Shown here piece after piece: positions 45,709 through 49,276 of a stretch of 64,000 nt of DNA. Below the pieces are notes generated by a model. It ran no database searches and had not been told where the DNA came from. It saw nothing but the letters and a program-made list of their open reading frames with translations. How positions within the stretch are numbered: the stretch's first letter is position 1; the number at the start of each line of letters is the position of its first letter. This DNA comes from an uncultured delta proteobacterium (GTDB taxonomy: Bacteria > Myxococcota_A > Polyangia > Haliangiales > Haliangiaceae), in assembly GCA_963772655.1 (NCBI GenBank), contig CAVYYE010000003.1:2545341-2609340 (forward strand), written 5' to 3'. A program made the translations under genes and the position numbers.

Positions 45709-46809
45709 ATGAGCAACGCCGACCTTCTGATCAGCAATCTCGCCAACCAGATCGATCACGCGTTGGCCCCGATGCGATTGAGTCTCGGACGCCTCGCGAG
45801 CTTCGAGCTATCGCGTCGACCGATGACGGCGGAGCGCCTGCACCGGATCGAGCTCCTGCAGGACGTGCGTGAAGGTGTCGACCTCGTCGAACGAATCGTC
45901 CGCGAGCTGCACGCGCTGTCGCGAACCGACAACGAGGATCGCAGTCGAGTCGAGCTTCCCCAGCTTCTCGAGACGGTGCTCGCGATCGCCGGCGAGGCCA
46001 CGCGTCACTGCGGATGGGTGTCCCGAAACTACGAGCGCGTTCCGGCGGTGTGCGTACGACCGACCTCGCTGCACCACGCGCTCGAGAACGTGGTGCTCAA
46101 TGCCGTCGAGGCGATCGAGGAGGATCCGCGACGCGGGCAACTCAGCGTCTCGACGCACACCGACGCTCGAGGCTACGCGGTGATCGAGATCTCCGACACC
46201 GGCCCCGGGATCGCGGAGAGCGACATCCCCCGCGTGTTCGATCCGTTCTTCACCACGCATCCGAGACGAGCTCTCGGACTCGGACTCGCGATGACGCGCG
46301 ACATGGTCCATGCGGAGGGAGGCGAGGTCGAGGTCGCCAGCGAGCTCGGGATCGGCACCACCGTCCGGATCTGCATCCCACCGTGTCCTCCCGCACTCGG
46401 CGACCGCGTGCCGACCGAGAACTTCGCTCCCTCCGAGCTCCCGCTCAGGATCCTGATCGTCGATGGCGATCGGCCGGAGGCCGCCGCGCTCGCCCTCGAG
46501 CTCGGCGATCACGACGTGGTGGTGACCGAGAACAGTCGCGAAGCGATCCACGTCCTCCGCGAGGATTCCGAGTTCGACGTCGTGGTCTGCGACGTCGAGC
46601 AACCCGAGAATCGCGAGGTCTACGAGGAGATCCGCGTGTCCGAACCGCACCTCCTCGATCGGATCGTGTTGCTGACCGAGGAAGCGCACTCGAGGAACGC
46701 GGCGGCGTTCCTGCCGGACGTCGAGGCGCCGGTGATCGAGAAACCGATCGTCGCGGATCAGCTCCACGCCGTGGTCGACGCGATCGCACACGAGCTCCAC
46801 GCGTCGTAG
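45709..46809 (+). CDS. Soluble hybrid histidine kinase (HisKA-like, HATPase, C-terminal receiver-like domain)
   Basis: IDHALAPMRLSLGRL is a H-box-like segment. HATPase motifs are EISDTGPGI and GLGLGLAMTRDMV. The receiver-like C-terminus reads LRILIVDGD. It is divergent from the sigma-54 activator and paralogous to the gene at 57272..58465. Confidence 0.8.
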   Translation: MSNADLLISNLANQIDHALAPMRLSLGRLASFELSRRPMTAERLHRIELLQDVREGVDLVERIVRELHALSRTDNEDRSRVELPQLLETVLAIAGEATRHCGWVSRNYERVPAVCVRPTSLHHALENVVLNAVEAIEEDPRRGQLSVSTHTDARGYAVIEISDTGPGIAESDIPRVFDPFFTTHPRRALGLGLAMTRDMVHAEGGEVEVASELGIGTTVRICIPPCPPALGDRVPTENFAPSELPLRILIVDGDRPEAAALALELGDHDVVVTENSREAIHVLREDSEFDVVVCDVEQPENREVYEEIRVSEPHLLDRIVLLTEEAHSRNAAAFLPDVEAPVIEKPIVADQLHAVVDAIAHELHAS

Positions 46810-46943
46810 CGAGCCCGTTACCCGGTGGCCGACAACGGAAGATCGACCCAGAACGTCGGTCCCTGTCCCGGTTCCGAGTAGACCTCGAGATTGCCGCCAT
46901 GGGCGGCCGCGTACGCGCGCGCCACGTACAGCCCGAGACCCAG
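46725..46943. repeat. Direct repeat copy A (about 220 bp), near-identical to 49055..49276
   Basis: 187 bp match copy B with 2 mismatches, from gatcagctccacgcc to gacccagg. It covers the 3' end of the hybrid kinase gene and the 3'-end fragment of a convergent kinase gene. Confidence 0.8.
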
Positions 46944-46945
46944 GC
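46812..46945 (-). pseudogene. Orphan 3'-terminal fragment of a histidine kinase gene, duplicate of the 3' end of the gene at 49149..50687
   Basis: It encodes ...[40 protein letters not shown], identical to the C-terminus of the downstream kinase, then diverges upstream. No start or body is present. Confidence 0.45.
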
Positions 46946-46947
46946 GA

Positions 46948-47779
46948 CTACAGGATGATGACCGCGCAACCCGGCTGGAGCGCGGGGTCAAACTCCATCG
47001 ACCACGAGAACAGGAAGCCGTTGTCGTCGGCCCACAGGTCGGTCACGCGGAGCTCCCACGTCCCGTCGAGCGGCGTGTTCGCGATCGCGCTCCACGGCCC
47101 TTCGCTCGCGTAGTCGCCGGGAACAATCTCCTCGCCGAACCCGTCGGACGCCGGCATCGTCGCGCCTTGCCAGATCGGGGTCGTCGCGGTGGGCGTGAAG
47201 CAGTACTCCTTGCCGACGCCCGGCTGCGGCTGTACGCCGGAGGACGCGTCGTCGCCGTCGTTGGCATCGCCGAGGTAGATGCTCGGCGCGTGCGAGCAAT
47301 CGTACGCGTGGAGAATGAGGTGGGCACCGCTGGGCGCCACCAGCTCGATCTGGGTGTCGGCGAGCCACGAGTGCTCGATGTTCAAGCACACCTTCTGGAG
47401 CTGGCTCGGGTCGGTCAGCGTCGCGCTGGGGGCGAAGGTCGACCAGAATCGCCTGCGAGGTGTACGGGTTCGCGCAGAATCCCGCGACGCACTTGCCGGT
47501 GCTCCCGCTGCACGACGCATCCGACGTGCACGAGCCACCGTCCTCGTCGATCCCGTCGGGCAGCGCGAGCGGCTGGGACTCCGGTGCCTCGCACGCCGGG
47601 CACTGGCCGACGCCCGCACACTTGGGATCCGCACAGTCGGCGAAGCCGTCGCCATCGTTGTCGAGGCCATCGTCACAGACCTCGGCACCGGACGCCGAGT
47701 CGACGGTGGTGCCTGGATCGCGAGCGGGGGGACTACACGCCACGAGCGAGAACAACAGCGCCACGGCTTGGAGCTTCAT
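46948..47779 (-). pseudogene. Lipoprotein with Cys-rich region and proprotein-convertase P-domain, with an apparent +1/-1 frameshift near 47400-47440
   Basis: Frame A (46988..47779) gives the lipobox LLFSLVACS and CDDGLDNDGDGFADCADPKC, then turns to Arg-rich junk. Frame B (46948..47688) gives a clean P-domain, KVCLNIEHSWLADTQIELVAPSGAHLIL...GTWELRVTDLWADDNGFLFSWSMEF, only after about 47430. A CCCCC run sits at the junction. Confidence 0.5.
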
Positions 47780-47960
47780 CGTCCCTGCGTATCACGGGTT
47801 GCCTTCGCGAACGGATCCTTTCTTGGGGGGGCCCAACTATCGATCCTCGGGCGATCTGATGCGGAGTGTCGACAGCAACGGTCATCGTCTGCCAGGGCGA
47901 CTACCTGGTTTCCCCCGCTGGGACGCCCCACCGCCAGAGCCAGCACACTGCCAGCCGCGA

Positions 47961-48944
47961 TCACGGCTGGACCGCGGCGGCGTAGATCGCGGTGTTGCCG
48001 TCACGGTTGGAGCTGAAGTAGAGGGTGCAGCCGTCCGCCGCCAGATCCGCGTCGCCATCGTGCGACGTGGTGTCGAGCTCGACGAGCTCGAGCGCGAGTC
48101 CGAAATCGTCGGCGGGCGTCGCACGCGTGGCATAGAACAGACGGCTGTCCGCGTTGGAGCTCCCGTCGTCGGCGGCGAACACGAGCACCCGCTGGTCCGG
48201 AGAGATTCCCGGGTCGTAGTACGCGTTCTGGCCCGGCGCGGTGACCGCGACCACTGCGTCGTGGTCGAACGCCGCGTCGATCGTGGTGCGCGAAGCGTGG
48301 TGGATCTGCTGGAGCCCCGCCGTGTCGGGAGCCCAGTAGAGATCGAGCCCATCGGGCGTGAGCTCGGGATCGAACTCGTTGCCGGCGGTGTTGATCGACG
48401 CGAACAGCGACGAGCTCGGCGCGCCGAACACGCCATCGGGTCCGCGCGTCGCTTGCCAGAGGTCGAGCGCGCCGAGCGTGCCCGTGCGATCGGAGGCGAA
48501 CACGGCGACGCGATCATCCATCGTCGTCGAGATCCGGGAATCGCGCATGCTCGTCTGCAGCTCGGACACCAGCTCCGGCATGCCGAACGGATCGCCGCTC
48601 GACAGCCGCGAGGCGCCCCACGGGTCGCCGCGGTGCTCGAAGTAGATCGCGAGCTCGTCGAACGACACCGACGGGTTCGCGAAGTCGCCGGTGCCGTTCT
48701 GTAGCTCGACGAGCTTGCGGGGTGGCTCGAAGGTCACCGTCCGAGACAGCCAGCGATCCCAGCAACCGGTCGGCGTCGCGTCGATCGGCGGGCAGTCATC
48801 GCACGAGACCTCGCACGTGTGGCTGACCGTGTCACACACCTGCGGGCTCGGACAGTCGACGTCGGAGCTGCACGGCACACCGGTCGGCGGGGACGGTGTG
48901 AAGCACGCCGGCATCGCGACGAGGAGTGTCCGAGCCAGCCTCAC
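47961..48944 (-). CDS. TolB-like/WD40-like beta-propeller (PD40 repeat) lipoprotein with a Cys-rich N-terminus
   Basis: Lipobox LLVAMPACF and CSSDVDCPSPQVCDTVSHTCEVSCDDC. PD40-like repeats include DRVAVFASDRTG, GLDLYWAPD, QRVLVFAADDG and GCTLYFSSNRDG. Confidence 0.7.
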   Translation of the reverse strand: MRLARTLLVAMPACFTPSPPTGVPCSSDVDCPSPQVCDTVSHTCEVSCDDCPPIDATPTGCWDRWLSRTVTFEPPRKLVELQNGTGDFANPSVSFDELAIYFEHRGDPWGASRLSSGDPFGMPELVSELQTSMRDSRISTTMDDRVAVFASDRTGTLGALDLWQATRGPDGVFGAPSSSLFASINTAGNEFDPELTPDGLDLYWAPDTAGLQQIHHASRTTIDAAFDHDAVVAVTAPGQNAYYDPGISPDQRVLVFAADDGSSNADSRLFYATRATPADDFGLALELVELDTTSHDGDADLAADGCTLYFSSNRDGNTAIYAAAVQP

Positions 48945-49019
48945 ACCACGAGTCTACCGGCAATGCCTCCCCGCCGGACACCGTCGATGTGATCGGTCAG
49001 ATGCAGCCGAACGCGACCT

Positions 49020-49140
49020 CGCGACCTTGACCGGCAACCTCCCGCCGCACCTCGACGCGCCCGTGATCGCGAAGCCGATCGAGTCCGATCAGCTCCACGC
49101 CGTGGTCGACGCGATCGCACACGAGCTCCACGCGTCGTAG
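49020..49140 (+). pseudogene. Orphan 3'-terminal fragment duplicating the C-terminus of the hybrid kinase gene at 45709..46809
   Basis: It encodes ...DLPVIAKPIESDQLHAVVDAIAHELHAS with the same stop context as the intact gene. The upstream part of the track ORF (48691..) is junk. Confidence 0.4.
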
Positions 49141-49276
49141 CGAGCCTGTTACCCGGTGGCCGACAACGGAAGATCGACCCAGAACGTCGCTCCCTGTCCC
49201 GGTTCCGAGTAGACCTCGAGATTGCCGCCATGGGCGGCCGCGTACGCGCGCGCCACGTACAGCCCGAGACCCAGGC
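49055..49276. repeat. Direct repeat copy B (about 220 bp), near-identical to 46725..46943
   Basis: See copy A. The two copies flank a 2.1-kb segment (46944..49054) carrying two lipoprotein genes. Confidence 0.8.

Follow-up and report, generated by a model that had tools for sequence, protein, structure and literature searches.

About 2.09 kb of DNA with two lipoprotein genes has been inserted into the junction of two convergent kinase genes in a 64-kb stretch of the genome of an uncultured delta proteobacterium (contig CAVYYE010000003.1; this whole stretch is called the window, and all positions are window coordinates). About 240 bp of the tail-to-tail junction of a hybrid kinase gene and a REC-PAS kinase gene are duplicated, one copy lying on each side of the inserted DNA, and a relative carries the two kinase genes directly convergent around a single copy of the junction. 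The locus was confirmed in this way as a lineage-specific duplicative insertion. The features on which the analysis rests are listed below; the genes were called from the frame-specific signal of GC content at third codon positions (GC3), from open reading frames (ORFs) and from Pfam matches. L083 is the contig of the relative with the empty site, L084 an independently assembled contig and L089 the contig with the closest P-domain orthologue.

45706..46809, plus strand: HATPase_c plus receiver hybrid kinase gene, 367 amino acids (aa), intact (Pfam HATPase_c 5e-21, Response_reg 5.5e-6; GC3 0.84)
46709..46945 (start possibly about 46701), no strand: repeat copy A, with the near-identical core 46756-46945; L083 1729-1965 aligns to copies A and B
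46818..46945, minus strand: orphan 3' tail of the REC-PAS kinase gene, 42 codons and stop, the same as 49149-49276 except at 46859
46946..49031, no strand: inserted DNA, about 2.09 kb, without counterpart in L083 and spanned by L084
46948..47779, minus strand: P-domain (proprotein-convertase P domain) lipoprotein gene (Pfam P_proprotein 2.3e-10), split over two frames as assembled
47780..47895, minus strand: upstream region conserved with the P-domain gene; L089 aligns to 47895..46946 at 85.8%
47961..48944, minus strand: TolB-like PD40 beta-propeller lipoprotein gene (Pfam PD40 4.8e-13), 327 aa from GTG, 317 aa in the database call
48945..49031, no strand: right end of the insert upstream of the TolB-like gene, 87 nt, without similarity to L083 or copy A
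49032..49276, no strand: repeat copy B, with an orphan hybrid-kinase tail at 49032-49140 (plus strand) and the true 3' end of the REC-PAS kinase gene at 49149-49276 (minus strand)
49149..50714, minus strand: REC-PAS-HisKA-HATPase kinase gene, intact (Pfam; database match P0001 100% identical)

Repeat anatomy and the empty site

A repeat search of 45-51 kb returned the pair of direct repeats 46709-46945 and 49040-49276 as one 237-nt family with a spacing of 2331 bp. No other repeat of more than 60 nt in the window is near-identical, the remaining families being paralogy at 60-85% identity or repeats within genes. The starts given in an earlier reading made from the sequence only (46725 and 49055) were slightly too high, and with L083 used as an outgroup to set the limits, the duplicated segment extends further, to about 46701-46945 and 49032-49276. 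The identity of the two copies falls into two tiers. By ungapped comparison, the cores (46756-46945 and 49087-49276) are identical at 188 of 190 positions, with mismatches at 46816 and 46859 and a longest exact run of 86 nt, so that the 2 differences in about 187 core positions counted previously proved correct. The left parts (46709-46755 and 49040-49086), in contrast, have 11 mismatches in 47 nt, that is 77% identity. This gap between core and left part is beyond sampling noise (Fisher p=1.6e-6, aligned counts).

Each copy contains the ends of both kinase genes, ~33 codons of the plus-strand hybrid kinase and 42 codons of the minus-strand REC-PAS kinase, with an 8-nt spacer between the two stop codons. 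The hybrid kinase gene is intact up to its TAG stop codon (46807-46809) in copy A, which contains its last ~33 codons, and the minus-strand tail at 46818-46945 is an orphan there; it directly follows the stop codon of the P-domain gene in another frame, and no ORF of at least 60 aa ending at 46818 was found. Copy B is the reverse, with the intact end of the REC-PAS kinase gene and an orphan hybrid-kinase tail. The anatomy claimed by the sequence-only reading was thus borne out by ORFs, Pfam and alignment. A 149-aa plus-strand ORF over copy B has no Pfam match and is simply the hybrid-kinase tail. Both kinases keep a complete 3' end because the junction segment is duplicated, each repeat holding the dead tail of the other gene.

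The empty site was found among the database matches of the REC-PAS kinase, which comprise one protein at 100% (from the genome's own 2.89-Mb contig), then P0002 at 79%, and many at 65-69%. P0002 is encoded on L083, a contig of 2340 bp on which the REC-PAS kinase orthologue is followed by a convergent gene, the two stop codons lying 2 nt apart. This convergent gene is a fragment of the hybrid kinase orthologue with 70.7% aa identity. According to BLASTN, L083 2-1965 corresponds to window 51004-49032 and L083 1729-2340 to window 46943-46326; the 237 nt at L083 1729-1965 align to both window copies, and 46946-49031 has no counterpart in L083. The junction is single-copy in L083 because the k-mer contig passes straight through it without a break. 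L083 was therefore confirmed as an empty site, in which the hybrid kinase and REC-PAS kinase genes converge directly and the 237-bp stretch is present once, as the comparison proposed from the sequence alone had anticipated. We place the insertion after the split from the L083 lineage.

The loci of the 65-69% orthologues (L081 and L085-L087) have another gene downstream each time, and they neither confirm nor contradict an empty site. A contig scan, dominated by a common receiver motif, returned only relatives at 27-51% identity, none of them nearer than distant paralogues or homologues. The four loci keep a block of NtrC, REC-kinase, in some cases a HAMP kinase, and REC-PAS kinase genes. A 1296-aa orthologue of the window's large HAMP-type kinase (50684-~54535) lies between the REC-kinase and the REC-PAS kinase in L085 and L086 and is absent from that place in L081 and L087. 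The gene after the REC-PAS kinase varies among L081, L083 and L085-L087 (a 509-aa protein, an amino-acid permease, an NTP transferase and the hybrid kinase), and because it differs in each relative, the 3' end of the REC-PAS kinase gene (49149) is a recurrent synteny breakpoint.

Support for the junctions from an independent assembly

The contig L084 (2199 bp, Logan, run ERR11594398), which encodes the TolB-like protein, matches window 49116..46916 at 99.9%. Besides the entire insert it contains the left part of copy B, where the repeats diverge, and it reaches exactly 30 nt into both cores; its end points are those expected at a true two-copy repeat in a k=31 graph. Both inner junctions are thus present in reads treated by a different assembler. 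The possibility that the repeats are an assembly collapse artefact, which the sequence-only reading had named as a refutation, is weakened by this contig, as it holds both inner junctions and ends 30 nt into the cores. The k-mers of L084 would be identical for an integrated copy and for a 2331-bp circle, and the outer connectivity is not proven by L084.

Composition of the insert

According to Pfam, the insert encodes only P_proprotein and PD40 proteins. No transposase, integrase or recombinase was found with Pfam among the insert genes and 30 other genes of the window, smaller ORFs not having been scanned; the scanned genes are those of an ordinary chromosome (FtsEX, M23 and S41 peptidases, a TonB receptor, kinases). 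Terminal inverted repeats are missing, the best end-to-end inverted match scoring 7 against a null mean of 6.8, and no short direct repeats were found at the insert ends. There is no tRNA or tmRNA gene in the 64-kb window and no Rfam family in 44-52 kb, and the plasmid and phage databases gave no match to the insert. No consensus promoter or terminator was found in a search of the insert, 48945-49031 included. The GC3 values of the insert genes (0.85-0.93) and of the flanks (0.83-0.87) are alike. Both lipoprotein genes have the direction of the kinase operon and follow it downstream, beginning 204 nt past the stop codon of the REC-PAS kinase gene.

The TolB-like protein is 100% identical to P0121, and its next best database match has 64% identity. 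Its orthologues in L082 (64%) and L109 (51%) are encoded beside a Phage_lysozyme2 gene, with no P-domain gene. In both contigs (L082 4226-6291, L109 1715-3799) the TolB-like gene adjoins a convergent gene with the Phage_lysozyme2 domain, and this neighbourhood is probably the native context of the TolB-like gene. The orthologues of the P-domain protein in L089 (88%), L105-L108 (83%) and L090-L094 (68-73% aa identity) have neither a TolB-like gene nor a kinase gene near them, and their flanks are mutually unrelated in seven metagenomic contigs. An upstream block of ~40-115 nt is conserved at all these loci; it measures ~115 nt in the closest ones and is shared with L089 and L105. The nucleotide homology of L089 covers window 47895-46946 and stops 2 nt past the stop codon, which is exactly the copy A joint, the stop codon of the P-domain gene being 2 nt from the insert boundary. 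Nucleotide comparison revealed no conserved sequence 3' of the P-domain gene across the loci, and tblastx extensions of these loci into copy A proved to be spurious at the nucleotide level. The P-domain gene behaves either like an independent unit that is found in changing surroundings or like a family with several copies. It carries its own conserved upstream region, and transcription through it would continue into the end of the hybrid kinase gene in antisense.

Since both genes are unlinked in every relative examined, the insert is a composite of two self-contained gene units and a further 87 nt (48945-49031). An mRNA-derived (retro-copied) origin of such tightly bounded gene units was considered and set aside, as nothing was found in its support. 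At the joint 46945|46946 there is no microhomology and no base is shared beyond the repeat; no similarity was seen at the second joint (~49031|49032).

The split of the P-domain gene over two frames is caused by one extra T at 47448, which is missing from the independent assembly L084. The window and L084 differ by two 1-nt deletions in L084, at 47448 and 47173. When the T at 47448 is removed, the two frames fuse into a lipoprotein of 276 aa; more than 40 homologues, 275-284 aa long, match this protein with 66-88% identity over the full length. With 17 full-length homologues it is colinear and gap-free through the invariant AIWS at the shift site. The difference at 47173 disrupts an invariant Trp in L084, and the window version is therefore correct there. 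Because the T is absent from L084 and the fused protein is colinear with its homologues, the frameshift is probably a sequencing error; the P-domain gene is probably intact and not a pseudogene, and its description as frameshifted in the sequence-only reading was probably wrong. Both indel sites read GATCTGG when intact, a motif present 27 times in the window as GATCTGG/CCAGATC, and CCAGAATC occurs once. The two differences are probably systematic long-read errors at a motif that is possibly methylated.

Age and polarity of the duplication

With L083 as an outgroup, copies A and B agree with each other and differ from L083 at 36 core sites, two sites are unique to A and none is unique to B. 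The copies are thus far younger than the L083 split, or they have been homogenised. The pattern of the left part is different: among 46 aligned nt, 7 changes are unique to A, 1 to B and 4 to L083, and all three sequences differ at 2 sites. The non-coding left part of copy B is outgroup-like, with one 29-nt stretch identical to L083, and the coding left part of copy A has clustered changes (e.g. GAG TCC to GTC GCG). The identity of copy A to L083 drops to 58% at 46686-46745, compared with 80-85% in the rest of the gene. The excess of unique changes in copy A (7 vs 1) has a binomial p of 0.035. We read the duplication as recent, later than the L083 split, because the non-coding copy decayed less than the coding copy, which is the opposite of what an old duplication predicts; the short diverged patch in the coding copy would be later or simultaneous. 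No other match to this patch was found in the window, and the paralogous kinase gene at 58.3 kb does not match it. Short, strongly diverged blocks of this kind have been described as a class of microdiversity in bacteria (PMC2884548). The loss of the insert from L083 was rejected as the principal explanation, as it would make B-unique sites the largest class and they are the smallest one.

Mechanism of the insertion

We tentatively favour an origin of the locus in one step, by break repair or template switching without any mobile-element enzyme, although our confidence in it falls somewhat short of even. Two routes may be envisaged. In the first one, two nicks in opposite strands ~240 nt apart would break the junction and leave long staggered ends, the overhangs would be filled in and loose DNA fragments would be joined between them by end-joining. 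In the second one, its replicative equivalent, a strand would leave its template at 46945, copy both gene units and re-enter ~240 nt behind. Either route would result in a tandem duplication with captured DNA at the joint. What is seen at the locus is in agreement with both, namely a target duplication in direct orientation around non-homologous DNA, and joints without extended homology.

The individual steps have precedents. Bacterial Ku/LigD end-joining fills in 5' overhangs and captures foreign fragments at chromosomal breaks, and it was found to insert two cassettes in tandem (Dupuy et al., PMC6379672). The present locus resembles this process, which depends on neither homology nor a mobility gene, fills in overhangs, may take up several fragments in tandem and leaves joints with little or no microhomology; the difference is that the experimental overhangs were 4 nt long, whereas ~240 nt would be needed here. 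Tandem duplications also arise when adjacent nicks in opposite strands are repaired (Schiml et al. 2016, PMID 27307441, as cited in PMC6954433); the sequence between the two offset nicks is then duplicated head to tail, sometimes with inserted DNA at the joint. These duplications and the paired-nickase outcomes differ from our case in that they come from plants and human cells, not from bacteria, and involve tens to ~100 bases. Large, GC-rich genomes are associated with end-joining (PMC7719229). Homology-facilitated illegitimate recombination (PMC2884548) resembles the locus in its gene-sized variable segment, conserved flanks and illegitimate joints without a mobile element, and the same paper also reports small highly diverged blocks like the left-hand patch here. 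This process, unlike the event discussed here, usually replaces or deletes the target and leaves no long flanking duplication.

Several observations weigh against our interpretation. A stagger of 240 nt far exceeds anything shown for bacterial end-joining. An event of the copying type predicts near-identical source copies, and the protein database contains a single copy of each insert gene, the one from the genome's 2.89-Mb contig. The two repeats should have been identical at birth, yet 11 of the 47 left sites differ, and a second event in the coding copy has to be assumed. Finally, a single relative with an empty site was found, and this on a contig of 2.3 kb.

The sequence-only reading had proposed Campbell-type integration, i.e. 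insertion-duplication or ends-in recombination, in which a circular or gapped donor with both lipoprotein genes and a copy of the junction would have entered by one crossover. The insertion with a duplicated junction, which is a part of this proposal, is upheld by the empty site in L083; the Campbell mechanism is not established, as there is no sign of a circular donor and the insert is composite. We regard this mechanism as the principal rival, somewhat less likely than a direct event. The product is the one expected of a single crossover, with the region of homology as the repeats and a single copy at the empty site, and 190 bp of near-identity would be ample for RecA. As with suicide plasmids that integrate, or with ends-in gap repair, the two interrupted genes are made whole again and recombination between the repeats can remove the insert. 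Ends-in recombination with chromosomal gap repair could even give a donor-type left part of copy B and a core copied from the recipient. The site patterns (188/190 in the core, 36/47 in the left part, an ancestral-like left part of copy B) fit reciprocal donor and recipient recombinants only in such special versions. The known cases differ from the present locus, which shows no trace of a circular donor, vector or replicon, whose insert combines two unlinked chromosomal genes and whose repeats have two tiers of identity. The window genes and the plasmid and phage searches gave no evidence of a replicon, an integrase or a circle, both insert genes are unlinked in relatives, and a donor diverged by 22% in the left part and by ~1% in the adjoining core is awkward. 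The donor must already contain both chimeric joints (at codon -42 and codon -33), which would have been made illegitimately. On any route, illegitimate joints would be needed between the P-domain end and codon -42, between the upstream end of the TolB-like unit and codon -33, and between the two units. We rank a direct event above the Campbell mechanism because the Campbell donor needs the same joints plus a crossover. The local duplication-insertion named as an alternative in the sequence-only reading is no worse an explanation than the Campbell mechanism. A circle could have served as the donor, excised from a sibling or a related genome already carrying the insertion, and the Campbell route is most plausible for the spread of an already formed unit between related cells.

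It is improbable that the duplication is old, dating from about the L083 split or from an earlier time with loss in L083, and that its 190-bp core was recently homogenised by gene conversion. Gene conversion can act between direct repeats that lie 2.3 kb from each other. Over the left 47 nt the copies differ by 23%, about as much as either of them differs from L083, and the three-way counts of 7/1/4 do not reject a star tree. Neutral decay, however, predicts more unique changes in the left part of copy B than in that of copy A, which is the opposite of the 1 and 7 counted. A duplication older than the split, with the A-type copy kept in L083, should make the B-unique sites the largest class and not the smallest. 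The identity also reaches the last base at the right edge (46945), so that the margin of the repeat is not eroded.

An artefact of assembly or of the population, with an empty site in the chromosome and a 2.3-kb unit from a subpopulation or a separate molecule threaded into it, is very unlikely. The assembly does have single-base indel errors, and a k-mer graph would be unable to separate an integrated copy from a circle of 2331 bp. On the other hand, the unit contains two bona fide genes with host-like GC3, both inner junctions are present in an independently built contig, the cores show two differences, as expected of two physical copies, and Pfam reveals no replication gene for a free element. 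To our knowledge, assemblers do not make such paths without spanning reads.

A conventional mobile element (a transposon, an integron cassette or an integrase-driven islet) moved by an enzyme in trans is hardly credible: the P-domain unit does have surroundings that vary from one to the next of seven relatives, and the insert boundary is only 2 nt from its stop codon, but there are no terminal inverted repeats, no transposase or integrase in the insert or the scanned window genes, no tRNA target and nothing conserved downstream of the P-domain gene across the loci, and a 237-bp duplication is far beyond known target-site duplications. Insertion sequences and transposons likewise duplicate the target directly around the insert, but their duplications measure 2-15 bp, compared with ~237-245 bp here, and are accompanied by a transposase and terminal repeats. 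The earlier argument that a flank of ~220 bp is no transposon target duplication thus holds. Genomic islands at tRNA genes and gene 3' ends are similar in that a direct repeat rebuilds the 3' end of the target gene and its function is kept; at the present locus, unlike at integrase islands, two genes are restored together without integrase or tRNA, and the repeat far exceeds an att core in length.

Paralogous genes and internal repeats in the neighbourhood

A divergent pair of an NtrC-like sigma-54 activator gene and a HATPase-receiver kinase gene is present twice in the window (44192-46593 and 55692-58180), 11.5 kb apart and with 70-78% nucleotide identity; a third, more distant copy of the activator gene lies at ~63 kb. 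The large minus-strand kinase gene at 50684-~54535 contains HAMP-type repeats with a period of 276 nt at 52782-54185. Further repeats within genes are the 24-nt tandem repeats at 14539-14834, in a 729-aa ORF (13131-15320) without a Pfam match, and the 99-nt repeats at 24181-24690, in an ORF of the OmpA family (23808-25718).

Significance of the locus

The locus is a clean case of an already known phenomenon, duplicative insertion without a mobile element. It represents a natural gain of genes without mobile-element machinery for which both the filled and the empty site are known. As a single case it is a useful example and not a surprise. A more general view, which we consider improbable, is that promoter-bearing single-gene units, of which the P-domain lipoprotein gene and its upstream block of ~115 nt would be an example, move between chromosomal contexts in Kofleriaceae-like myxobacteria with no enzyme encoded by an element; such units would land at operon ends via break repair and leave target duplications of hundreds of bases, a distinct and recurrent signature of gene capture and no isolated accident. 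If more cases are found, the length and anatomy of the duplication would be a searchable signature of gene acquisition by break repair in large GC-rich genomes.

Where two convergent genes have nearly no spacer, a simple insertion would truncate one of them, and a long duplication makes the insertion tolerable. The 190-bp repeats should also permit precise, RecA-dependent loss of the insert, which would restore a junction like that of L083. Such precise loss of the two lipoprotein genes is predicted to give on/off variation of surface proteins.

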